A stretch of 27,226 bases of DNA, taken from the IMG/VR virus record IMGVR_UViG_3300032220_001536, positions 1 through 27,226 of that record, one strand, 5' to 3'. Under the pieces are notes generated by a model. The model was not told the DNA's origin and made no database searches. It saw nothing but the letters and a program-made list of their open reading frames with translations. The stretch comes from a virus (Duplodnaviria; Caudoviricetes). This document shows, piece after piece, positions 2,215-25,381 of this stretch (the first letter of the stretch is position 1; each line of letters opens with the position of its first letter). A program made the position numbers and the translations under genes.

Positions 2215-2259
2215 CAAAAGTCCATAAACTTGTACGTAAGGTCGCATTCCATAGTCGTC

Positions 2260-4092
2260 GTGTCCCAAACAACTTCCGAAGAATTCCGGAACGACGGAGC
2301 CCTAGTCAATGTTTTGACTGGAATGGGAATGTCTTCGAAGGATCGAACAGTCTTTACGGGTATTGCCACACCTTCTTTCCTTGGACAATCAGATCTTGAG
2401 GCTCTGTACTCCCACGGAATCCCCCGGCGTTACGTCGATGCCATCTCCGACGAGATCCTGAGGCACCACACCACCATCACCCTGGGTGGGGATGAAGATC
2501 CCAATGCCAACGACACCATCTCGGCATTTGAAGAATTCCTTAAGGACAGCCAGTTCCACCAGGCCCTAGCCGAAGTCATCAAGCTGCAGCGTCTGTACGG
2601 GGGAGCCGGCCTGGTCCTCCTCATCGACGACGGAGTGGAAGATCCAGCCGAGCCTGTTAATACAAACAACATCCGCGGCATCAACGGGTACATCCCTCTC
2701 TCCCGTTGGGAACTGCTCCCTGAGGACTTCACGATCACGGACTGGTCTAAGCCCACCCATTACCGGATCACCACCAGCCAAAAGATCACAGACGACCAGA
2801 GAGCCGCCTACGTCAACGTTCGGATCCACCACACCCGGGTGGCCCGCTTCGATGGCATGTACCTGCCCTGGCGTGTCCGAGTACGGAACACCGGCTGGGG
2901 TCAGTCCGTCCTCCAGCTGATTTGGGAGTCGTACAAGCGCTACGAGTCCGCCATGGCCGGCCTCGAGAGCATGACCTCCGATGCGGACCTCTTTGTTCAC
3001 AAGATGCCGGGACTGTTCCAACGGATTGCTGCAGGAAACGAAAGCGACCTGCGCAAGCGCCTCGAGGCCAACAACCTGAGCCGCTCGGTCTACGGCGGCA
3101 TGGTGGTCGATAAGGAAGAGGAAGTGGAGTTCCTCAACAGAGCCCTCGCCAACATTGCCAACGCCACCGATCCCTTCGTCAAGGATCTGCAGGCAGCCAC
3201 CGGCTGGCCCGCCTCGATCTTGATGGGTGATTCCCCTGGTGGTCTGGGCAAGGAAGGCCGCTTCGAAGAACGGGTCTGGGCTTCCCTGGTCGAGCAATGG
3301 CAGGAGGTCTACTGCCGCACCCCGATCACGGAGATCTTCACCTACATCCTGGCCAGCAAGCAGGGCCCCACCCGAGGACGCATCCCGCCCTCCTGGGCGA
3401 CCAGCTTCACCAGCGTGTTCACGCAGACGGATGAGGAGAAAGCCGCCTTACGTCTCCAAATAGCGCAGGTGGATTCCCAGTACATCAATCTCGGGGTGCT
3501 CAATGCCCTCGAGGTGCGTGAAGCCCGCTTTGGTGGCACCGAATACTCGATCGAGACAACGCTAAACCAAGCAGTCACTGACCAGCTGATCGCCAGTGCT
3601 GATGCCCAGTTCCAAACCCAGATGATGGGTTACCAAGCCCAGCAGGAGGCAGCCCTAAATCCTCCGGAACAGGCTGGTGTACTCCCACCAGGCGAGACCA
3701 CTGAAGAAGAGCAACCCCAGCCTGAAGAGAAGACCAAGCAGGACAACTTCGATTCCTACGAAGCCCAGGGCCTGCGCATCCGTGTTTCGCACGTAGTCGG
3801 TGACCTCAAAGCTGGGTATCTGGTAGGTCCTGATGGCCAACGCACCGATACCAGTGCCAACGCACCCTTGATGGTGTTTGGTCCCCACCGAGCTCGGAGC
3901 TACAAGCTCTACCGCGCTCATTTCGTCTGTGACGGAGCCTTGCTTGATGGCCCCTATGCCACAGGCTTCGCCTCACTCAAAGCAGCCAAAGCCGGGATTG
4001 CAACTTTCTTCCCTCGACAGAATGTGGCAGGACTGTCCCCTGTTCCCGAGGGCGAAGTTGAAGCTCTCCGTGCCGCCTGGGAGGTGTACTAA
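2260..4092 (+). CDS. Portal protein (DUF1073-like) with C-terminal extension
   Basis: Motifs DGALVNVLTGMG..KD, RLYGG, IHHTRV, GWGQSVL, AATGWPASILMGDSPGGL; position at the start of the head module. GTG 2260 preferred over TTG 2230. Confidence 0.88.
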   Translation: MSQTTSEEFRNDGALVNVLTGMGMSSKDRTVFTGIATPSFLGQSDLEALYSHGIPRRYVDAISDEILRHHTTITLGGDEDPNANDTISAFEEFLKDSQFHQALAEVIKLQRLYGGAGLVLLIDDGVEDPAEPVNTNNIRGINGYIPLSRWELLPEDFTITDWSKPTHYRITTSQKITDDQRAAYVNVRIHHTRVARFDGMYLPWRVRVRNTGWGQSVLQLIWESYKRYESAMAGLESMTSDADLFVHKMPGLFQRIAAGNESDLRKRLEANNLSRSVYGGMVVDKEEEVEFLNRALANIANATDPFVKDLQAATGWPASILMGDSPGGLGKEGRFEERVWASLVEQWQEVYCRTPITEIFTYILASKQGPTRGRIPPSWATSFTSVFTQTDEEKAALRLQIAQVDSQYINLGVLNALEVREARFGGTEYSIETTLNQAVTDQLIASADAQFQTQMMGYQAQQEAALNPPEQAGVLPPGETTEEEQPQPEEKTKQDNFDSYEAQGLRIRVSHVVGDLKAGYLVGPDGQRTDTSANAPLMVFGPHRARSYKLYRAHFVCDGALLDGPYATGFASLKAAKAGIATFFPRQNVAGLSPVPEGEVEALRAAWEVY

Positions 4093-7000
4093 TGGACAAC
4101 CAACAGCAAGACACCACCAGAGCAGCCGCTTACCTTGCAGCTAAAGAGCGCCTGGACCTGCGGGGTGCCAAGTCCACCCGCACGGGCAAGACCCGTAACA
4201 CCATCAACTGCACAGCAGGCAACAAGCGTTGCGGAAACCGGTGCATCCCTAACAACTGGGACTGCCGGCTTGAGGGAAAAGGAACCAATTCCGATCTAAG
4301 TGCCCACTCTCAGGATTTGCTTGCGGGTACCGCCAAGCTGCAGCGAGGCTCGAGGGATCTGATCAAAGGTCTCAGCACAGCAAACCCAGAGCTGATTAAC
4401 CGAGGACGTAACTCGTTAGTACTAGGGGCTGTCAAAATTGCTCCAGGTGACAAGCTCGACAAGAAAAAGCAACTCAAACAGGACATTCTTCGCAACACAC
4501 GTCCTGTAGTTACGGTTCTAACCCTAGGTGTCTTGGGCCTAGCTGCTCACCGGGGGCTAAAGAAAACTTGGCCTGGCTACGCCAATGGAATGGGCCGCAA
4601 ATTAGATGACGCTGTCAAGCATGGGTACAACAGTGTCCTAGACCGCACACCCATTGTTGGGGCTAGGCGGGCAGCCATCCGAGCCACTGGCTTTGGTGCG
4701 GTTCAACAAGGTAGCAGGCAACTCCTAAAGGGCAACGAACTAGCCCGCAAGACCAGTGCAATGGCTAATAGCAATCCACTGAAGCCTGGGCTTGCAGCAA
4801 CAGTGGGCATCAGTGCTGACACCAGGGGTTCGTCATTGATAAACAAGTACGACGAAATGGTTAGGGGTGCCAAGGGATCAGTCAATAGAGATACATGGAT
4901 ACAAAAGGGACGTCAGCTTGTCTACGATGCAAAAGACAAGAAGGGCAATAGTGTTTACTCAACAGATGCAAGTGCTTATTTATTGACAAAACAATTCGGG
5001 CTTGACCCCAGGGGCATGATCGGAGATCGAGTCCGCTCAAGCTACACAACTACAGCACGCAGAGAGATTCTACAGATAAGACTGGGGAATCATTTCAACG
5101 AGCTATCAACAGCTATGAGACGGGACATGGAAGTCCGCGGCATGGATGTCAAACAGTACACCGAAAGCGTGCTGAAGCCTCAAATTGCAACCTCCACAAT
5201 GTGGATACCCGTTGCCGGTGACCGCAAAGCAGCGTCTCAACAGTCGGAGCAATTCCTAACAAGACTAATCACCAAAAATACAATTTCAGACCACAAAGAC
5301 CACGCCAATGAAATCATTAAAAAGACGGAAACTCATTTCAACACAGTATTTAACGACCTTTCTCTGAACTTAAATCGTAATGCGGCCAGTTCTGAGTCTC
5401 CAGCGGATGAAGCAACACTGGGATTTGCTCGTTTTCTGTCTACAAACTCACGCGGACCTGCCGTACGAGTCGTTAACAACGAACATGCAGACCTTTACCT
5501 CGAGGGCGTTTTTCGCCGACGAGTTAATGGACAAAACGATCCAATCGTTATCTCACGTCCGACTGCCGTTCGTGTAGCAAAAGCAGTAGCAGGCCACGCT
5601 ACGAATCCAACTCCAGAACAGGCACTTCAAATTCTTAAGGTTCAAGGTGGTATCAACGCAACTTATGCCGCATCGACTGGCCGTGTTCGCGTCCAGCAAA
5701 GCCTGACGGAAAGAGCACGCCAGCTGATGGCAACCGGAAACCTGAGCTACGAAGCTGCCCTCCGTCAGGCACGCAAAGAGGCCACTGCTCGCGGTGATTC
5801 CGACGACAGCGGAATTCCCCCACGGGTTGAAGCTTACCTTGAAGCTCGCACCGATCTCAAGGAGAACCCCCGCCTGGGAAAGACCTGTGGGGAGTCCCAT
5901 ATCCCCAAATCGCATAAGTGCACGAAGGGGATAGGTGCTTCTACGCAGAGTGCGGTCTCCAAGCATCAAGCTGCAAAGATCGCCGCCATTTCGGGTGGTG
6001 TCCTTCTGGCAGGTGCTCTCCTCACCGGCCTCGGTGTCAACCAGGCCAAGGTAAACAGATACCGATCGAACGTAAGTGAGTCCGCCATCAAGGCCGAAGT
6101 TCTTGCCAAAACAATGATGGACGAGATGCGTCAATCCGCGGCTCAGCGTCTAGGCAAAGACGTCAAAGACGTCACCGGCTTTGAGGCGTCAGTCTACAAC
6201 TTCAAGGACTCAGGACATGACCGCGGCTTTGGTAGCAACGACAAGGCCCCGGCCTACTTTGGCCAAACCCCGAACAGCCGAGGTGGCGTCGTGATGCTCA
6301 GCTACGCCGACGACAACCGATTTACCCGCCAGGGTCAGGGCAGCTACAAGATGGCCAAAGGTGGAGCCTTTCAAGAGATCTGGGGTGAGCACGATGTCCT
6401 GCCCTTTGCTAACAGTATTTCGCAGCCAAGCCGGCGCAGCCCAGACGACATGACCATGCAAGCCCGAGAACGGGTGGTCAAGGCTGCTGGACCGTTAGGA
6501 GGTGCAGTCAAGGGAGCTGTTAATACGAAAGAAGCTTTCTCAAACTTTGATTACTTAAGCGAAAATATCAACCGCCGGGGTCACAATCCGGATGCAATTA
6601 GGGCGGCTGCCTTTGTCGTGGCCCAACGCCGCCTCACCGGCAAGCCAATCAACTTGATGTCGTATAGCAACGGTGGAAACGTTGCCAGCGAGACCCTGGC
6701 CATCCTAAAAGACATGGGCTATAGGGACGTCAAAGTAATCAATATCGCTGGTCCCACCTTCGGTGTTTTCTCCCATAGTCGTGACCAGATGCGGACTTGG
6801 GTTAGCCGGGGCGACGAGTTCTGGTCGATGGGACGCAGTGCTGCATTTCAGGGTAGCAACATCCAGTTCCTCCGCAACTCCAACATTCCTCACGGACTAA
6901 CGGCCAAAACCGATCCCAACAATCGCGAGAACGGGGCCAATTGGAAGGCCAACTTCAAGGCAAAAAACAGCTACTTACTGGACGAGCAGCTGCAACGGGA

Positions 7001-7322
7001 GGCCCACCAGTTCCTGACCGTGGACAACCGCCGTTCTAGAGAGCTTGCTGATGAATTCATCTGGCGTTCAGCAGAGCGCAAGCCATTTGAGGGTGACCTA
7101 GACACGCTGTTGGGTGCGCGTGCCACCTCCGTTGCTGCCACCTACCGTCAAAAGCGTAAGGCCAACCTCGAAGCCGCCGACAATTGGCTACGCGACGAGC
7201 TTGAGAAAAGCATGATTGACAAGTGGTACGGAGGCTACAACGCCAAGACTGTGAAGAACCGCCAGAAAGAAATACAGCGAGACCTTCAAGAGCAAATCCA
7301 TGGTAAAAAAAGCGCCGCGTAG
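4092..7322 (+). CDS. Large two-module putative head cargo protein (ORF A); C-terminal alpha/beta-hydrolase-like domain
   Basis: 1076 aa; two CG-x3-I-x5-C motifs (4230-4265, 5886-5921), each followed by a hydrophobic segment; NLMSYSNGGNVA nucleophile-elbow-like motif. The ORF is solid; its function is inferred. Confidence 0.7.
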   Translation: MDNQQQDTTRAAAYLAAKERLDLRGAKSTRTGKTRNTINCTAGNKRCGNRCIPNNWDCRLEGKGTNSDLSAHSQDLLAGTAKLQRGSRDLIKGLSTANPELINRGRNSLVLGAVKIAPGDKLDKKKQLKQDILRNTRPVVTVLTLGVLGLAAHRGLKKTWPGYANGMGRKLDDAVKHGYNSVLDRTPIVGARRAAIRATGFGAVQQGSRQLLKGNELARKTSAMANSNPLKPGLAATVGISADTRGSSLINKYDEMVRGAKGSVNRDTWIQKGRQLVYDAKDKKGNSVYSTDASAYLLTKQFGLDPRGMIGDRVRSSYTTTARREILQIRLGNHFNELSTAMRRDMEVRGMDVKQYTESVLKPQIATSTMWIPVAGDRKAASQQSEQFLTRLITKNTISDHKDHANEIIKKTETHFNTVFNDLSLNLNRNAASSESPADEATLGFARFLSTNSRGPAVRVVNNEHADLYLEGVFRRRVNGQNDPIVISRPTAVRVAKAVAGHATNPTPEQALQILKVQGGINATYAASTGRVRVQQSLTERARQLMATGNLSYEAALRQARKEATARGDSDDSGIPPRVEAYLEARTDLKENPRLGKTCGESHIPKSHKCTKGIGASTQSAVSKHQAAKIAAISGGVLLAGALLTGLGVNQAKVNRYRSNVSESAIKAEVLAKTMMDEMRQSAAQRLGKDVKDVTGFEASVYNFKDSGHDRGFGSNDKAPAYFGQTPNSRGGVVMLSYADDNRFTRQGQGSYKMAKGGAFQEIWGEHDVLPFANSISQPSRRSPDDMTMQARERVVKAAGPLGGAVKGAVNTKEAFSNFDYLSENINRRGHNPDAIRAAAFVVAQRRLTGKPINLMSYSNGGNVASETLAILKDMGYRDVKVINIAGPTFGVFSHSRDQMRTWVSRGDEFWSMGRSAAFQGSNIQFLRNSNIPHGLTAKTDPNNRENGANWKANFKAKNSYLLDEQLQREAHQFLTVDNRRSRELADEFIWRSAERKPFEGDLDTLLGARATSVAATYRQKRKANLEAADNWLRDELEKSMIDKWYGGYNAKTVKNRQKEIQRDLQEQIHGKKSAA

Positions 7323-8206
7323 TGGAGCTAATTGAGCAGTACAACCAGATCCTCCGCACCACCGAGGACGGAACCATGCGGCGGCTCAACCGCGTCCTCG
7401 ATCAGTCCTTCAACCACATCGTGCGCCGCACGCGCATCCAAATGAAGGCTGGGTACAGCGATGCCCAGCAACGCAACCTGGCCCTGCTTCAAGAATTCCG
7501 GAATCTCGTCCCTGCCTACCGCCCGGACCGGGTCGATGCCTATGACCGGCTGCTTCGCACCTTGTTAGGAGACGCAAGCCGCTCGGGCCTCGATGTGGCC
7601 AGCCAACTGACCGAGCAAATGACCCCGGGCAAGCCCCGGATCGACGTATCCATCCCCCTGGATGCCACGGTCTCCGCCGCCGCCCAAGCCAAGGGCTACC
7701 TGCGCAAACACGGTGAGACCTTCGCCACCAAAGCAGCTGAGGTCGTAGCCAAAGGCATTGCCGAAGGTCGTGCCACCGACTCAATGGTCCAGGACATGCG
7801 CCTACGCCTGGGTGTGGTCAAGTCCAGAGCCGATGTCATCGTCCGCACCGAAACCCTGCGGGCCTACAACGACGCCTCGAACAACTACTACGCCAACCAG
7901 GGCATCGATCTGGTGATGTACTACGCCACTGCTGATGATCGCAGCTGCCCTTATTGCGCACCGAGGGCGGGCAAGATCTACAAACGCCAAGAGATCAAGG
8001 TCCCTTTGCACCCCCGGTGCCGGTGCTTCCTATCCCCCTGGGACCCCGACATTGCCCAGATGGACCCGGACTACACAGCCAAACGGGCCAAACACAGCAA
8101 AGAAGTCGCCCAAGCCATCGGCAAAAACGGCACCACCGAGGCCGTAAACCTCAGTCGTGCCGCTGTGTTCGAGCAGGTTGCCCCGACTCCTGTTAGTCCT
8201 ACTTGA
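7322..8206 (+). CDS. Head morphogenesis protein, Mu gpF / SPP1 gp7 family (short MuF, no toxin extension)
   Basis: RADVIVRTETLRAYN, DDRSCPYC, PLHPRCRC motifs. Confidence 0.9.
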   Translation: MELIEQYNQILRTTEDGTMRRLNRVLDQSFNHIVRRTRIQMKAGYSDAQQRNLALLQEFRNLVPAYRPDRVDAYDRLLRTLLGDASRSGLDVASQLTEQMTPGKPRIDVSIPLDATVSAAAQAKGYLRKHGETFATKAAEVVAKGIAEGRATDSMVQDMRLRLGVVKSRADVIVRTETLRAYNDASNNYYANQGIDLVMYYATADDRSCPYCAPRAGKIYKRQEIKVPLHPRCRCFLSPWDPDIAQMDPDYTAKRAKHSKEVAQAIGKNGTTEAVNLSRAAVFEQVAPTPVSPT

Positions 8207-8381
8207 AGCCAGGCAGGCGTTGGAGCAGTTTGATCAAGGGCTTCATGGCCTCGAGCTGGGCGTCGATGGCCTCGAGCAGACTCTCAATCCTCTTCAGGCG
8301 TGCAATCGCATCGTCCGCCCGAGTGATCAGGGGAGCGGCTGCCTCTTGGACCTCAGAACCTAGAAAGCTACCGAGTCCCAT
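8199..8381 (-). CDS. Small coiled-coil-like hypothetical protein
   Basis: 60 aa amphipathic helix; ATG overlaps the TGA of the upstream minus-strand gene (TGATG). Confidence 0.65.
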   Translation of the reverse strand: MGLGSFLGSEVQEAAAPLITRADDAIARLKRIESLLEAIDAQLEAMKPLIKLLQRLPGFK

Positions 8382-8521
8382 CACTTCTTAGGAAAAAGGA
8401 CTTTAAGGACGCTAAAAATGAGTTGAAGCCAAGAGTTAGCTTTCAGCGAAGGCGTAATCGCCATAATCTCTGATCCAGCTGCCACAACGACAGCAATAAC
8501 AGCAACAGTTTGAACGCTCAT
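8381..8521 (-). CDS. Small membrane protein, holin-like, 46 aa (not in ORF track)
   Basis: Manual translation MSVQTVAVIAVVVAAGSEIMAITPSLKANSWLQLIFSVLKVLFPKK: two hydrophobic/amphipathic segments and a basic C-terminus. The holin role is inferred. Confidence 0.65.
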   Translation of the reverse strand: MSVQTVAVIAVVVAAGSEIMAITPSLKANSWLQLIFSVLKVLFPKK

Positions 8522-8617
8522 AGTGAAAGTGTCACTGTTACCAGCTTATGGACCCTGATGTAAAACACCATCGCTAAGCTGGCCTATACAGAGTGGGCCA
8601 AAGGCGCCCTCTTCGCC

Positions 8618-9667
8618 ATGGCACGCCCCACCAAACAGCGCCCTCCTGTAAAGCAGGAAGCAGAAGAGATGGAAGCCCAGGAAATGGGTGAGACTTCCGA
8701 AGAAGAGACCCGTGAAGGCACCGAGGACGGAGCCTCCATGAAGAACAGCCGGAAGCGCAGCCCCAAAGGTGCCAAAAACACCAAGGCTCCGATGGACGCT
8801 GAGTGCGGCATCTGCAAATCTGGCAAGTCTTGCTCTTGTAAGGCCAAGAAAGACGGGGGATGCGGTAGCTACGGCAAGCGTGGCGATGCCCTGACCCCTC
8901 AGGAATATCTCGCTGCTTGCGATCTGGGTATCCAAGACCGCAGCCGCACCTACATTCGCGCCCGCCTCGACACCGCCATGAACCTCACACCTTCCACTGT
9001 CCGCGCTGACCTCAAGTGCGGGAACGGCTCCATCTCCCAGGGTGAGAAGTGCACCAAAGGCACGGCGCAGACCGTTGATCCGAGAGCCACCGCAAAGCGA
9101 GAATTTAACGACATTCATCGTAATCGCAAAGCTCACGCTGCATTCCACAATGCAAAGGCGAACAGAAAAGGTATTGGCAACAAGGTAAAGCTTGCAGGTG
9201 AAGTTGCAGCTCGTGTGGGTGCACAAGTCGCACTTGGTGTTGGCACAAATCAAGTAGTCAAAGGTATTATGAGTGGAAATATAGGTGAAGCAAGCCGAGG
9301 TTTTCGCAATATGCACCTAGGTCAAGCTGCCGTGCAGATGGCTAATGCTGGCAAAGCTAGCCGCATGGGCAATAAAGGACTCGCGAAAGAATTTATTAAG
9401 AGTGCAGGGCGTAATGCGGGAGTTGGCGTCGGCCAAGAAGCTGCTATTGGAGCCTATGCAGGTTTCAAACGCACAGGGGGAATGGCCGGTATCAATCGCC
9501 GTACTCGTAGTGCCTATCAATCAGCCCGAGCACGTGCCACCGGCATGCGCTCCACACCACATGGCACTGGATGGGCCTCTAGCGCCTACGACCGTCCCTT
9601 GCCCGGTCGTCGTGACTCGGTCTACGCCGCCGGATTTAGCCCTGACTACGAGCAACTCGCAATCTGA
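8618..9667 (+). CDS. Putative head cargo protein (ORF B): acidic/Cys-rich N-terminus plus leader-Cys module
   Basis: Internal MNLTPSTVRADLKCGNGSISQGEKC (from 8978); tail RRDSVYAAGF. Confidence 0.75.
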   Translation: MARPTKQRPPVKQEAEEMEAQEMGETSEEETREGTEDGASMKNSRKRSPKGAKNTKAPMDAECGICKSGKSCSCKAKKDGGCGSYGKRGDALTPQEYLAACDLGIQDRSRTYIRARLDTAMNLTPSTVRADLKCGNGSISQGEKCTKGTAQTVDPRATAKREFNDIHRNRKAHAAFHNAKANRKGIGNKVKLAGEVAARVGAQVALGVGTNQVVKGIMSGNIGEASRGFRNMHLGQAAVQMANAGKASRMGNKGLAKEFIKSAGRNAGVGVGQEAAIGAYAGFKRTGGMAGINRRTRSAYQSARARATGMRSTPHGTGWASSAYDRPLPGRRDSVYAAGFSPDYEQLAI

Positions 9668-9670
9668 GGC

Positions 9671-10447
9671 ATGGCGCTTACCCCTGCCACCATTCGCGCT
9701 GACCTCAAATGTGGGAAAGGGTCCATTTCCGAGGGCGAGAAGTGCTCAAAGGGCGCTGCCACTAAGCGTGCACCTCGAGCTGGCACCACAGAGCGACTGC
9801 TCAAGCGCGCCGGGACTATCGGTTTTATGGGGGGCCTCGGTTACACCGCAGTTGCACTAGCCAAAGGCAAAGCCAACCATGCAGTAGGCGGATTGACTGG
9901 TGTTATGGCTTCAACATCCGCTTTCAACACAGGTGAGGCAATGATGTATGAGCGCAAAGGTCAGAAAGCCAAAGCTAAAACAGCGCGAATAAAGGCCGGT
10001 ATAGGTGCTGGCTATGCACTAGCGGGTATAGGTCTGCTGGGGTACGAAGCCATATCAACCCGTAACTACATAAATAATGTTGCAAACGGCACATACACGC
10101 GAGAAACCGCAAGGAAAACCCAAGCAGCAGGAGAAAACTACAAAAATACCTATCAGGGCCGTTATGGTGGCGCAAGCGGAGCCGGTTACCGAGGTGCTCG
10201 TCCTCCCCGCCGCGGCTACCAAGGAAATCCCTTCCAAGATCTGGGTGTGTCCGCTTCGGCATCTACTGCGGAACTGAAGAAAGCCTGGAAAGCAAAGATG
10301 ATGCAGCATCATCCTGACCGCGGGGGTGACCCCGAAGTGGCCAAAAAGATCAACGAGGCATATCAAGCCATTCTGCGATCTAAAGGCATCAAGGACTCCA
10401 TCTACGCCGACGGCTTCGACATTGACTGGGACGCCCTCGCGCTGTAA
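9671..10447 (+). CDS. Putative head cargo protein (ORF C) with C-terminal DnaJ J-domain
   Basis: Leader MALTPATIRADLKCGKGSISEGEKC; hydrophobic segments; NPFQDLGV...LKKAW...HHPDRGG...INEAY J-domain; tail IKDSIYADGF. Confidence 0.85.
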   Translation: MALTPATIRADLKCGKGSISEGEKCSKGAATKRAPRAGTTERLLKRAGTIGFMGGLGYTAVALAKGKANHAVGGLTGVMASTSAFNTGEAMMYERKGQKAKAKTARIKAGIGAGYALAGIGLLGYEAISTRNYINNVANGTYTRETARKTQAAGENYKNTYQGRYGGASGAGYRGARPPRRGYQGNPFQDLGVSASASTAELKKAWKAKMMQHHPDRGGDPEVAKKINEAYQAILRSKGIKDSIYADGFDIDWDALAL

Positions 10448-10450
10448 GCC

Positions 10451-10966
10451 ATGAACCTCACCCCTGCTACCGTCCGTGCCGATGCCTTTATCGGTAACAA
10501 GAAGCTTAACTGCGGCCCTGGTTCCAAACCATGTGGCAACGCCTGTATCCCAAAAGACCACAAGTGTCGAGCGTCCTGGAACAAACCAGTCAAGGTTGCC
10601 GCCACAGTAGGTGCAGTGGCTGGTGTTGGATTAGTTGCAACTGCCTTCCTGCATAAACGCCCTGGTATGCGTAGCGCTGCACGAGCCTCTATCGAGCCAC
10701 TTGCTCAAGCTGGTTTTGCCGCAGGCAACGTTGCACGAGGCAACTTTGCTGGTGCTGCAAAGAACGCAGCCAATGTTGCTATGACCGGCAGAGAATTACC
10801 TAAGAATCTCAAGTCTCTAGCTAAAGGCTACAGCACAGACCTGAAGAACTTAGTCAACCGAGGTCGTAATGCTTCGTTCAAAGCTCGTCATCATCGTCAA
10901 GCAAAAGGTGGCCGAGTACCAGGCTTAAACTATGACTCAGTCTGGGCCATAGGTTTTGAACCGTGA
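10451..10966 (+). CDS. Putative head cargo protein (ORF D), basic, with a membrane segment
   Basis: Leader MNLTPATVRAD; CGPGSKPCGNACIPKDHKC; VAATVGAVAGVGLVATAFL; tail YDSVWAIGF. Confidence 0.75.
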   Translation: MNLTPATVRADAFIGNKKLNCGPGSKPCGNACIPKDHKCRASWNKPVKVAATVGAVAGVGLVATAFLHKRPGMRSAARASIEPLAQAGFAAGNVARGNFAGAAKNAANVAMTGRELPKNLKSLAKGYSTDLKNLVNRGRNASFKARHHRQAKGGRVPGLNYDSVWAIGFEP

Positions 10967-11349
10967 ACCTCACTCCCGCCTCCCTGCGCCTTGACACCGA
11001 GGACGGCAAGAAGTACACCAAGGTCGTCACCAACCCCGAAACCGGCCGTAAAAACAAGGTCCGTTATGGCGCCAAGGGCTATCGCATCGCACCTGGCACT
11101 GACAAGGGCGATCGCTACTGCGCCCGCTCCTTCGGCGACATGAAATCCGAGGGCTACAACTGCTCCGGCGGGGAACGCAACACCCCGCTTTGCCTTTCCC
11201 GGGCCAAATGGGCATGCTCTGGCAAGACCAGCCGCAAATCTTCTGCTCTAGCTCGCAAGGACAACTTCATCCAGCACTACGCCCCGGTTCAGCTTCAACC
11301 ACCCAATAAGCGCGACAGCGCCTGGATGCCGGGAAAGTCTCCGGCCTAG
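10963..11349 (+). CDS. Putative head cargo protein (ORF E), basic and Cys-containing; frameshift donor
   Basis: Leader (M)NLTPASLRLD; tail KRDSAWMPG containing the slippery heptamer. Confidence 0.75.
   Translation: MNLTPASLRLDTEDGKKYTKVVTNPETGRKNKVRYGAKGYRIAPGTDKGDRYCARSFGDMKSEGYNCSGGERNTPLCLSRAKWACSGKTSRKSSALARKDNFIQHYAPVQLQPPNKRDSAWMPGKSPA
11331..11337 (+). other. Predicted -1 programmed frameshift site G GGA AAG
   Basis: X XXY YYZ phase is correct in ORF E (CCG GGA AAG); same heptamer as lambda G-T; the -1 frame is open to 12185. Confidence 0.8.
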
Positions 11350-12185
11350 CTCGAGCCGACGCCCCCGAGGTCGCTCGCGGTAAGCCATGTGGTGCCTCTC
11401 ACATCCCGAAGCAGCACAAGTGTGGTAAGCACGCGGCTTCTCAGGCTTCGGCCAAGCAAAAACGCCTAACTCGACTGGCTGTAGCGGGTGGATTAACCGT
11501 CACTGCAGCGGTGGGCTTAGCCCTAATCGCTCGAGGCAAAGCCACTCCCCAAGTCCGCATGATGCCTGGGGTGACTGCCGCCCCGGTACCCCTAACACCC
11601 CGGAGCGTAAGGCTCTTACCTGCTCGAAGCTCAGCGCCAACCGAGGACGAACTAGAGATCCTTGAGCAATACATCAACAGCAGCCGCGTCTTGAATCGCA
11701 GCCTGCGCAGCGGGAAGCTTGTCCCTGGTGTGGAAGCCCGCGTCGAGAAAATCGACACTTGGATGCGTAACGCAAGCCCCACCGAGGGCCGGTATTACCG
11801 CGGCATAGCCTCAGAAAAAGATGCTGAATTCTTCCGCACTGCTTCCGTTGGTGACACCTACAACGACCGTGGATACGGCAGTTTCTCCAGCGTTTACCTC
11901 ACGGCCAGACAGTTCGCTAAAGAGACAGCAGCGGGCGCAGAGCGTGTAGTCGTACGCACACGAGCACCTTTTTACGCCATGCCAACCGAGGCCATCGACA
12001 CCATGGCCCGACACCGTGGAACCTTTGATGTTTCAGCCGCTGGCGAGAACGAGTTCCTCGCTCCACGTGGTGCAAGCTATCGCGTGACCAAGATCCGCAC
12101 CGGTATCCCAACTGAAGGGCGCAACCGTCTGCTTCGCAAGTACACCCTGGTGGATCTGGAGTACACAGGGGTCAACAATAGTTAG
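11337..12185 (+). CDS. ADP-ribosyltransferase module (VIP2/C2/Alt-like, R-S-E class), probably expressed as a frameshift fusion to ORF E
   Basis: YINSS..LNRSLR, YYRGI, GYGSFSS, GENEFLAPRGASYRV. The frame is open from 11310; a Cys module (11388-11423) lies upstream of the first GTG (11511). Confidence 0.85.
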   Translation, partial: VSGLARADAPEVARGKPCGASHIPKQHKCGKHAASQASAKQKRLTRLAVAGGLTVTAAVGLALIARGKATPQVRMMPGVTAAPVPLTPRSVRLLPARSSAPTEDELEILEQYINSSRVLNRSLRSGKLVPGVEARVEKIDTWMRNASPTEGRYYRGIASEKDAEFFRTASVGDTYNDRGYGSFSSVYLTARQFAKETAAGAERVVVRTRAPFYAMPTEAIDTMARHRGTFDVSAAGENEFLAPRGASYRVTKIRTGIPTEGRNRLLRKYTLVDLEYTGVNNS

Positions 12186-12397
12186 ATCCCTTTGATCAAA
12201 TCTTGCAGCGTAAGCCCATAAAGCTCGCTCAAACTGAACAACTTTGTAAGCGATACCTCCACTTCTCCCTTTTCCAACCTCGAATACGCCGCCTGACTCA
12301 CACAAAGTACCTCTGCAACCTCCATCTGTGTGAGTCCAGCATGCTCCCTTAGGCCCCGCATGCGACGACACAACATCAATTGCCTGTGAATCGCCAC
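12182..12397 (-). CDS. XRE-family helix-turn-helix regulator
   Basis: LREHAGLTQMEVAEVLCVSQAAYSRLEKG; start uncertain (12397, 12376 or 12361). Confidence 0.88.
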   Translation of the reverse strand: MAIHRQLMLCRRMRGLREHAGLTQMEVAEVLCVSQAAYSRLEKGEVEVSLTKLFSLSELYGLTLQDLIKGI

Positions 12398-12459
12398 TCA
12401 GTTTTAACCGCCTACCGTTTAAGGCTACTCATTACATCCTGGGGTCGTAAAGTGGTGCT

Positions 12460-13752
12460 ATGGAAACATCTGTTTCTCGCTACGATTTCGCGCCTATCAC
12501 GGGTAGCGAAGCCACCGAGGAGGGTTACCTCCGCGTGTGGTGTCGTGCGGCGCGTACGGGCACTCAGCTCTATCGGCGCGCAGATGGTTCACAAGTTCGG
12601 GAATACCGGCCTCCTGAAGAGGTCAGCAATCCCGACGCTCTCTCCACGTTCGGTATGAAAGCCGCTACGTGGGGGCACCCACCCGTCCTTCTCGACGCAG
12701 CAAACACAAAGCAGTACCAAATTGGCTACTCAGGTAGCCAAGTTCGGTACAACGATGGCTTTGTCGAAGTTGCACTCGTCGTCACAGACGCCGATGCCAT
12801 CGAGAAGATCAAGCGCAAAGATGCCACCGAGGTGTCCGCCGGCTACAAAGTCGACTTCGACCCCACCCCCGGGATCACCCCCGAGGGCGAGGAGTACGCC
12901 GGTGTCCAACGCAACATCCGGGTAAACCACATCGCCATCGTTCCTCGTGGCCGGGCCGGTCCCGAGGTACGCCTTCTGCTCGATCGCATGGATGCAGCCG
13001 ACGCTGTTTCCTGCCCCGAGTACGAGTTGGCACTCCAGCCCAGTCAACCTGCATCTCCCGTTATGGCCACCGTCAAACTGGACGGCCTGGAGATCGATCT
13101 GCCCGCAGAAGCAGCTACGGCGGTCCAGTCCTTCGCCCGGGACATGGAGCGCCAACTCAAAGCTGTTTCCACTGAGCGCGACGAGCTTTCTTCCAAGCTC
13201 GACGCCCAGCAAGAGGAGATCGATGCCCTCGCCTTTGAGAAAGAAACCGCCGAAGGTCGTGCCGACGCTCTCGAAGAGCGCCTGGCCGAATTCGACAACG
13301 GTTCTGCTCGCATCGACACAGTCGAACTCGACCAACTGGTCGCTGATCGTCTGTCCACCCTGCAAAACCTGGCTCCCGCCTTTGCCGACGACTTCAAATT
13401 CGACGGAATTGACGACGCCAGCCTCTACAACCAGGCTTTCGAAAACCTGACCGGCACCGCTCCCCGCGAGGACGCTGAGCCTTCCTACATCCAAGGCGTA
13501 GTCGACGGCATCCTTGCCGCTCGTGCTGACTCCGAGGACGACGAAGAAGGTGAAGATGACGCCCCCGAGGGTGAGGGCGAAGTCGCCGAAGAAGGCGAAG
13601 CCAAAGAGGACGCCGCTGACGCTCGTTCGGACAGCTCTGCTGCCCTACGCAACGCGCTGAAAGGCGTCGGCAGTGCAAACGCCACCCCCGAGAGCGTTTA
13701 TCGCTCGAAGATGGCTGATGCCTGGAAGCGTCCCCTGACCGCCACTAAGTAA
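12460..13752 (+). CDS. DUF2213-type putative prohead protease with C-terminal scaffold-like coiled coil
   Basis: EGYLRV..RAARTGTQLY, EYRPPEEV, GHP, EVSAGY, QRNIRVNHIAIVPRGRAG; acidic coiled-coil second half; lies just before the decoration and capsid genes. Confidence 0.85.
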   Translation: METSVSRYDFAPITGSEATEEGYLRVWCRAARTGTQLYRRADGSQVREYRPPEEVSNPDALSTFGMKAATWGHPPVLLDAANTKQYQIGYSGSQVRYNDGFVEVALVVTDADAIEKIKRKDATEVSAGYKVDFDPTPGITPEGEEYAGVQRNIRVNHIAIVPRGRAGPEVRLLLDRMDAADAVSCPEYELALQPSQPASPVMATVKLDGLEIDLPAEAATAVQSFARDMERQLKAVSTERDELSSKLDAQQEEIDALAFEKETAEGRADALEERLAEFDNGSARIDTVELDQLVADRLSTLQNLAPAFADDFKFDGIDDASLYNQAFENLTGTAPREDAEPSYIQGVVDGILAARADSEDDEEGEDDAPEGEGEVAEEGEAKEDAADARSDSSAALRNALKGVGSANATPESVYRSKMADAWKRPLTATK

Positions 13753-18645: not shown

Positions 18646-19183
18646 GTACGCCAGCATCCTTTTCGAGCCCAGCAAGTTCCACCAGATTGGGCCATTCCGC
18701 TTCCCGGTCTACAACGACCTTGTCCCCGGTGAAGCCAAGGGCATCGAAGAGATCGGGCGTAAGCAGTCCAAGTCAACCTTCCGCTCGATCAAGCTCGCGC
18801 AGCGGATCGCTAAGGACAAAGGCATTACGACCAAGGAAGCGGTCGACCTTCTAAGCAAGGCCAACGACGACGAGAACCAAGCAATCCTGTTTGATTACGT
18901 AACCGAACTCGAGGAGCTCCAAAGCGACACCCTCGGTGCCACTGAGCAGCAAATTGCTTTTGTCACCCTATTCATCCGCTACCGGGGAGAAGTCAAGCTT
19001 CCCCGCTCAAGGGAATGGACCCGACTCAGTGACTGGACCGATGAGGACACCGAGAGCATGCCCTCCAAAACCATGGAGGAAGTCTTCAAGCTACTGACCT
19101 GGGAGCGTGATGGCTGGCCCGAGCCGGAAGCGGAGGGAAACGAAGTGGAGCAGGAGTTCAGCCCACCCCCGAACAAATCCTGA
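18638..19183 (+). CDS. Tail assembly chaperone (gpG-like)
   Basis: ATG 18638 (MSKYASILF); lies between tail tube and tape measure; slippery site near its 3' end. Confidence 0.8.
   Translation: MSKYASILFEPSKFHQIGPFRFPVYNDLVPGEAKGIEEIGRKQSKSTFRSIKLAQRIAKDKGITTKEAVDLLSKANDDENQAILFDYVTELEELQSDTLGATEQQIAFVTLFIRYRGEVKLPRSREWTRLSDWTDEDTESMPSKTMEEVFKLLTWERDGWPEPEAEGNEVEQEFSPPPNKS
19135..19141 (+). other. Predicted -1 programmed frameshift site G GGA AAC
   Basis: GAG GGA AAC in the chaperone frame; the -1 frame is open through 19614. Confidence 0.85.
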
Positions 19184-24911: not shown

Positions 24912-25381
24912 TGACACTCGACATTCGGATCTGCCAATTCTTTCAACTCACCACAGCAGCTGGCATCCAGCATCTGTACCAGAACTACTTCGCCCACGAG
25001 AGCGTTCCCTACGGGAGCAAAACCTACAACTGGGCTCCGTTCCGAGCTGAAGGCTCAATGGCCTCCCTGAACGGCGAAAACACAGTCCTGCAGGTGCTGT
25101 TTCCCAACATCGACTTCGTGCTCCAGCTGCTCAGCCAAGGGGGAGGTAACAGGCTAAGCACCTTGATCCTGACCACCCAATGGCTCACCCGTGACAACGC
25201 CTACACCCGTAACGTCCAGACCGAGTACTACATCGGCACAGGTGCCTCGATCAGTGAAACAACAGTTGAACTGCGCTTTCGGTCAGCGATCGACAGCGTG
25301 GTGTCCAATTTTCCCGGTCGTACACTGACTCAGGCGCTGGTTGGCCCTTTGCCCCTGGATTCACAGTTGTATCTCCAATGA
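24911..25381 (+). CDS. Minor tail (hub, gpL-like) protein
   Basis: YQNYF...FPGRTLT..LVGPLP; positional. Confidence 0.6.
   Translation: MTLDIRICQFFQLTTAAGIQHLYQNYFAHESVPYGSKTYNWAPFRAEGSMASLNGENTVLQVLFPNIDFVLQLLSQGGGNRLSTLILTTQWLTRDNAYTRNVQTEYYIGTGASISETTVELRFRSAIDSVVSNFPGRTLTQALVGPLPLDSQLYLQ

Follow-up and report, generated by a model that had tools for sequence, protein, structure and literature searches.

A conserved, probable −1 shift site precedes exchangeable enzymes in the head module of uncultured freshwater phages

Genes, host and reading frames of the locus

The window, the whole stretch of DNA analysed here, is a 27,226-base fragment (G000, 39% complete) of a tailed phage genome from a family of uncultured freshwater phages. 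Behind the portal gene, a large modular gene (ORF A) and a separate MuF gene lie four small modular ORFs; the end of one of them, ORF E, overlaps a −1 frame with a predicted ADP-ribosyltransferase (ART) domain (Table 1). Beyond the HTH gene the order is DUF2213 protease, cement and major capsid, followed by tail genes. By capsid protein the closest isolate is Synechococcus phage S-CBS4 (52.6%; next best about 33%), in which the order HTH(−)/protease/cement/capsid matches that of the window, and this similarity and gene order point to a picocyanobacterial host. Sequence similarity to S-CBS4 and to Cyanophage S-TIM5 suggests a cyanobacterial host; a host scan of genomes returned four loci, none of them informative.

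A search of positions 8200–12500 found no sigma-70 promoter. On the reverse strand, the interval from MuF to ORF B contains a short stretch resembling an ORF (8391–8546) that looks hydrophobic and holin-like. The core of ORF E (10993–11250) has stand-alone relatives in Cyanophage S-TIM5 (gp065) and in Roseobacter and Vibrio phages; the S-TIM5 protein matches at 62% and is encoded near virion genes, and the relative in Vibrio phage 1.054.O sits just upstream of the portal.

Table 1. Features of the window, numbered from its first base
Feature	Position	Strand	Remark
Portal	2230–4092		
ORF A, large modular	4092–7322		
Possible further in-phase GGGAAAG in ORF A	5876–5882	+	At Cys module; −1 stop 11 codons later
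MuF, separate short gene	7322–8206		
Four small modular ORFs	8618–11349		Common LTPA-x-x-RxD leader and Cys/His modules
ORF with DnaJ domain	9671–10447		
ORF E, frame-0 partner, 128 aa	10963–11349	+	LTPA-x-x-RxD leader; Cys-rich core common to many phages
−1 frame with predicted ART	11310–12185	+	Opens after TAA 11307–11309; runs to TAG 12183–12185
Shift signal GCCGGGAAAG	11328–11337	+	Heptamer G GGA AAG at 11331–11337
Frame-0 stop TAG	11347–11349	+	
Arg-Ala-Asp in −1 frame, candidate cleavage mark	11352–11360	+	Doubles as 5' arm of the originally predicted hairpin
Short stem, consensus CGCCC / GGGCG	11360–11373	+	One mismatch in the window; 22 nt after heptamer
Cys/His module (G-K-P-C-G...H-K-C), −1 frame	11379–11429	+	Also precedes other cargo domains of the cassette
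Hydrophobic 19-residue segment	11475–11531	+	Mean Kyte-Doolittle 2.13; contains GTG 11511
Predicted R-S-E clade ADP-ribosyltransferase domain	11640–12185	+	Arg 11799–11801, Ser 11880–11882, Glu-x-Glu 12045–12053, stop 12183–12185
Convergent HTH gene, closing the cassette	12182–12397	−	Overlaps ART stop
DUF2213 head maturation protease/scaffold, candidate processing enzyme	12460–13752	+	
Tail-chaperone G-T site G GGA AAC	19135–19141	+	13 codons before stop; −1 frame open 157 codons

ORF E starts at a GTG that overlaps the upstream TGA, and its 3' end reads ATG CCG GGA AAG TCT CCG GCC TAG. The heptamer GGGAAAG, the sequence of phage lambda's own G-T slippery site, is in X XXY YYZ phase with ORF E and lies three codons before the stop. 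The original prediction was that a −1 shift here, outside the tail chaperones, gates an ART module. Its coordinates for the ORF E end, the heptamer phase, the TAA at 11307–11309, a CTG at 11322 and the lack of any ATG, GTG or TTG in the −1 frame until 11511 all hold, and recomputation again gave a predicted fusion of 407 residues, against 128 without a shift. The TAA itself is incidental: a substitution that is synonymous in frame 0 removes it from contigs of X2 and X6 and from one X7 contig. The Cys module of the −1 frame does resemble module 2 of ORF A, as had been noted, but 13 of 17 identical residues are fewer than 'nearly identical' implied.

Across the 21 genes of the window there are eight in-phase X XXY YYZ sites, and only two, those of ORF E and the tail chaperones, combine a G GGA AAN heptamer with a nearby stop and a long −1 frame. 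The ORF E site belongs to the head module, and the tail-chaperone G-T site is separate. A CCCTTTG at 25345 is likewise close to a stop, and the next gene overlaps there in −1. An in-phase GGGAAAC (1202–1208) is present near the end of a further ORF (1038–1271), where the −1 frame extends for 63 codons. In S-CBS4 gp32 an A-run heptamer is as far from the stop as the window's 19135 site is from its own, and the −1 frame is open for 155 codons.

The ART domain matches PF03496 (E 1.1e-6). Its catalytic residues R54, S81 and E138 are invariant in 27 of 27 aligned rows, with the window reading E-N-E at the last motif, and the model (pLDDT 92.4) has the ART fold (Foldseek probability 1.00, TM about 0.6–0.7). 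The best PDB structure matches are C3/VIP2-type ARTs (E 5e-9), and among viral proteins the closest folds belong to ARTs fused to MuF, portal or minor capsid proteins; the match to phrog_832 is weak and a PDB sequence search gave none. From sequence and model, the predicted ART is of the R-S-E (Alt/VIP2/C3-like) type with its catalytic residues intact. No immunity-like ORF follows it.

Conservation of the probable shift site among relatives

Relatives were gathered with ORF E (80 loci kept of 120) and with linker-alignment searches that used patterns downstream of the heptamer (53 viral and 78 metagenome loci); the −1 ORF itself, used as a query against viral contigs, gave seven candidates, none of them a relative. 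A heptamer-based DNA scan yielded 117 loci, mostly unrelated chance matches, which were excluded from the junction counts; the comparisons of third positions and of the short stem read them too, but all 36 junctions used there besides the window are also present among the ORF E or viral linker loci. Removal of exact-junction duplicates reduced 204 loci plus the window, drawn from collections that overlap in samples, to 45 distinct 90-nt junctions. We call a junction shifted if frame 0 holds the upstream family motif and the −1 frame holds the linker. By this definition 39 are shifted (38 relatives and the window), four are in-frame fusions and two, ambiguous, have the same decamer; the 39 do not stand for 39 independent origins, since their ancestry is common through recombination.

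All 39 shifted junctions carry GCCGGGAAAG; the search patterns lacked the heptamer, but its last G was implied by the Val/Ala codon of the search motif. The frame-0 stop follows the heptamer within zero to four codons. At the site CCG, GGA and AAG are each used in 39 of 39 junctions, as against 0.24 of Pro, 0.06 of Gly and 0.70 of Lys codons in upstream genes. As a control for ancestry, 33 of these sequences, with a median pairwise identity of 0.64, were compared across the core of ORF E, where none of 16 four-fold sites was invariant. Median identity of the junctions is 74%, with the window 56–73% identical to the others, and the conservation of the site at the nucleotide level goes beyond what the protein needs. 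Third-position variation tracks frame 0 upstream of the site and frame −1 downstream of it. In an X2 contig, all seven listed upstream changes fall at third positions of frame 0 and nine of 15 downstream changes at third positions of frame −1, all of the latter before the first GTG, so that coding constraint extends over the part of the −1 frame in which no start codon is available.

The four in-frame fusions are of different kinds. L010 has an extra G, fixed in one relative lineage, and L210 keeps the heptamer in frame. The other two (L062 and L225) have no heptamer; in-frame relatives without it, which were to count against the prediction, do exist, but make up only two of the 45 junctions. 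In L227 an apparent 47-nt deletion between two GGGAAAG copies restores the frame. The in-frame versions imply that the fused chain is the natural product and also that the shift is not obligatory. We conclude from sequence comparison that the ORF E site is real and conserved and very probably the place of a ribosomal −1 shift, a variant of a known recoding mechanism. The claim of such a shift outside the tail chaperones is supported by these comparisons and passed all of the refutation tests run, and the heptamer and its frame offset, proposed as a check in relatives, were kept in every shifted junction.

No strong stimulator was found at the site. Folding of the downstream 50-mers reached z below −2 in none of the 39 junctions. 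The hairpin originally proposed is present, but it starts 14 nt past the heptamer and is no more stable than shuffled sequences (z +0.17 to +0.58), and we dropped it as a stimulator. Each pair of the short stem in Table 1 is kept in 34–39 of the 39 junctions, with almost no covariation, and coincides with conserved codons; an SD-like word precedes the site in 14 of 39. In most relatives a GGC at +12 to +14 is complementary to the invariant GCC that precedes the heptamer (11328–11345 in the window). A GCC/GGC stem enclosing the slip site is feasible but weak (median z −0.43), and either this pairing or an E-site effect is a possible role for the invariant GCC.

An exchangeable cargo cassette

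The unit behind the shift consists of junction, Cys/His module, hydrophobic helix and enzyme. Among the 39 shifted junctions, some of which carry two cargoes, classification by motif with Pfam support gave 26 kinases, three ARTs, four acetyltransferase-like domains, one HEXXH domain, three phrog_6437-type modules and three others, with four cut by contig ends; the acetyltransferase-like label is our assumption from a motif, with no family match. The kinase cargo had no match in cultured phages. An identical junction sequence leads into a kinase in L218 and, in L213, into an ART. The proposed gating is not specific to the ART, as the cargo of relatives is mostly kinase, and the gate belongs to the cargo cassette rather than to ORF E.

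The cassette is dispensable, since 47 of the 80 ORF E loci lack it; the others comprise 27 shifted loci, three in-frame loci and three that end too soon. In the window's closest relatives by protease (L001, L002 and L054; 97.5–99%) the slot is empty. Placed on a tree built from 57 protease sequences, the shifted state takes 19 changes to explain, which is no improvement on shuffled labels, a scatter which argues that the cassette moves freely. Its frame-0 partner ranges from about 890 residues down to an 18-codon, leader-only ORF in L207 (4954–5010), which has a GTGA-coupled start and would shift into a kinase cargo; with a partner this short, attenuation is almost the only function left for the shift. 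P0006 is an ART that has a leader of its own in frame, and P0008, known as a protein record only, starts Met-Arg-Arg-Asp right at the linker. Low dosage is therefore not obligatory, given these two and the enzyme classes of the cassette that ORF A homologues carry in frame.

Gene callers were expected to truncate such genes, and P0001, 95% identical, is indeed called from the GTG as 224 residues. Database proteins P0001, P0005 and P0011 are cut inside the hydrophobic helix, and out-of-frame residues open records P0002, P0003, P0010, P0019 and P0030 before the linker.

ORF A offers a second polymorphic slot. Homologues L289, L290, L294, L300 and L319 contain in-frame kinase, LRAT/NlpC-P60 and HEXXH domains, and the C-terminal domain in the window has an alpha/beta-hydrolase-like look, a weak ESM Atlas lead. 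A −1 shift at 5876 would truncate ORF A to about 608 residues. Of 34 first internal modules of the pre-MuF ORF, 22 contain GGGAAAG, preceded by one of five codons that each end in G. The heptamer is also present in 13 of 14 modules behind an ORF A N-domain that could be detected and in 35 of 37 'xL-GK' modules, compared with 5% of other Gly-Lys pairs. It also exceeds background in later ORF A modules (two of 11) and linker modules (10 of 37), so inheritance from an ancestral module may explain part of the pattern. We judge the chance that ORF A undergoes this truncating shift to be a little short of even. We do not count a His-codon bias as a sign that the −1 stop of ORF A is under selection, as CAT is also common at that His in linker modules (18 of 37).

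Proposed role, alternatives and relation to known systems

Because the cassette sits between MuF and the head protease and ARTs of the head region are generally predicted to be packaged, as stated in the consulted parts of PMC9503650 and PMC5512222, the products may be head cargo; we lean slightly towards virion cargo as the fate of the fusions. R/K-x-D occurs upstream of the site in 38 of 39 junctions and on the −1-frame linker side in 35 of 39. Marks of the form R/K-x-D-small number 12 in the DUF2213 protease (1.7 expected) and five in ORF B (0.9 expected), with no match to this pattern in the window's capsid protein; the count in the protease/scaffold is consistent with self-processing, and Arg-x-Asp is a candidate cleavage mark.

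On balance we favour a model in which a rare shift fusion loads a swappable enzyme into the head, to be freed at Arg-x-Asp and delivered to the host. A minority of ribosomes would slip back one base at G GGA AAG by tandem tRNA slippage (Gly from GGA to GGG, Lys from AAG to AAA), at a low rate and with no strong stimulator. The enzyme would be made only as a rare C-terminal extension of the carrier, giving many carrier chains and few enzymes. Dosage is quite likely the purpose of the shift, and we infer an enzyme that is toxic and kept at low copy number. The leader would direct the fusion into the phage head, the DUF2213 protease would release the enzyme, and the ART could then ADP-ribosylate arginine in a host protein early in infection. 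A broader Gag-Pol-like scheme is rather doubtful and offered tentatively: frameshifts would meter ART, kinase and peptidase on capsid-directed carriers, the head protease would free them at Arg-x-Asp, the truncating site of ORF A would meter in the opposite direction, and three frameshifts would set virion stoichiometry.

The frameshift could be real and its product an intracellular, membrane-anchored late protein acting in host takeover, lysis timing or superinfection exclusion. The hydrophobic 19-residue segment ahead of every cargo enzyme would suit such a protein, as would the lack of a strong match between cassette modules and virion-verified families, among which the best was phrog_8455 (E 0.007, on ORF B). 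We nevertheless consider it unlikely, given the position of the cassette between portal/MuF and protease, the leader and R-x-D marks that it has in common with the protease/scaffold, and the virion-protein-fused ARTs that are its best viral fold matches. Less probable still is that the shift only keeps readable a module originally inserted in the wrong frame, with no selection on the ratio. This explanation is given for frameshifted Ig-like extensions in the consulted sections of PMC5009743, in-frame variants exist, cargo enzymes are in frame elsewhere, and the junction resembles a degenerate LTP...RxD leader. One base would repair the frame, however, yet 39 of 45 junctions stay shifted over a median divergence of 26%, and the 18-codon partner in L207 leaves attenuation as the only role of the shift.

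Slippage of RNA polymerase with one added base would give an identical frame outcome, the extra G is fixed in the L010 lineage, and a good 3' RNA stimulator is missing; the runs are only G3 and A3, however, and the site is always in the X XXY YYZ phase of a known ribosomal shift heptamer, making this reading very improbable. Equally hard to sustain is translation of the enzyme from its own start, with an incidental heptamer. CTG 11322 and GTG 11511 are available in the window, relatives have upstream GTGs, the open −1 frame contains some ATG, GTG or TTG in 24 of 39 junctions, and P0008 begins at the linker. No start is common to the junctions, however: from the closing stop to the Cys module, 15 of 39 have no ATG, GTG or TTG, and 13 of these no CTG either. 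The CTG at 11322, the independent start that had been named as a possible refutation, is absent at that position from the other listed junctions; a start at GTG 11511 would lose the conserved, coding-constrained module, and the fixed rare codons would be left unexplained. An assembly error or recent pseudogene is next to impossible: the suggested check for an indel, made at the level of contigs, found 0 gaps and 6–23 substitutions across the site in contigs of all four other runs (X2, which belongs to the study of the possible source run, and X5, X6 and X7, each from another study), the offset is common to 38 related junctions, and the ART keeps its catalytic residues.

According to the consulted sections of PMC5009743, shifting on G_GGA_AAG is very frequent in E. 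coli, and the G:GT ratio of lambda is about 30:1. As in the lambda G-T case described there, a short ORF has close to its 3' end a G GGA AAN heptamer that would give a rare longer fusion, with ratio control in a structural operon. Unlike lambda, the window has the site in a head module, with MuF on one side and the protease on the other, and the part that would be added is an exchangeable enzyme rather than a chaperone domain. Phages can do without the cassette, which is mobile, and in the window an ordinary G-T site exists separately. The same sections describe shifts in T7 (10B), T3, Lactobacillus phage A2 and Listeria phages A118, A500 and PSA that likewise add a variable domain to the product of a virion gene, with in-frame and shifted versions both occurring among capsid and tail extensions. 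Those extensions are structural, often Ig-like, and borne by major subunits, whereas here enzymes would be attached to minor modular proteins and the partner also varies.

A variable C-terminal enzyme in the head module is a trait that the cassette shares with MuF polymorphic toxins. The cassette resembles MuF polymorphic toxins (PMC5576092) and MuF-VIP2 fusions (PMC7302621), as the portions consulted describe them, in its place in the head module, in a polymorphic C-terminal enzyme that can be a VIP2-like ART, and in its proposed delivery with DNA. It differs in that MuF is a separate gene and expression would depend on a frameshift. No MuF domain was matched on ORF E or the −1 ORF, and because it is without a MuF domain and without an immunity gene we do not class the cassette as a MuF toxin. 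The portions of PMC7302621 consulted report in-frame MuF-VIP2 fusions. Like T4 Alt and the phage polyvalent proteins (PMC5512222 and PMC9503650, in the parts consulted), the family strings R-S-E ART, kinase and metallopeptidase modules together in late genes; packaging has been shown for T4 Alt, whereas that of ORF E-fused cargo is predicted from the genes. As in retroviral and totiviral Gag-Pol (covered in the parts of PMC5009743 consulted), a −1 shift would tie an enzyme to a capsid-directed chain at a fixed low ratio, with later proteolytic release. The likeness is an analogy only, as this is a dsDNA phage with a host-directed enzyme and with packaging and cleavage predicted. In S-CBS4, the first 26 kb contain no GCCGGGAAAG and no such cassette was seen.

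Phage frameshifts reviewed in the consulted sections of PMC5009743 serve tail chaperones, coat and tail extensions, replicase and cro, and none gates an exchangeable enzyme; those of PMC7911831 concern tail chaperones only. The main texts of PMC5576092, PMC5512222 and PMC9503650 make no use of the word 'frameshift', and a search of the full-text literature (open main texts) found no account of the cassette or of a phage frameshift that gates an enzyme. In the part of PMC10885494 consulted, PRFect lists a VIP2 ART and MuF-like genes among unverified frameshift predictions, which is the nearest printed hint that we found.

If the shift is confirmed, recoding would be a way of controlling the dose of effectors that phages deliver, and genes of this kind would prove to be mis-annotated as a class. 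Near-identical phages naturally carry shifted, in-frame and empty alleles, which opens the role of dosage to direct testing; the junction could serve as a marker for finding new phage effectors.
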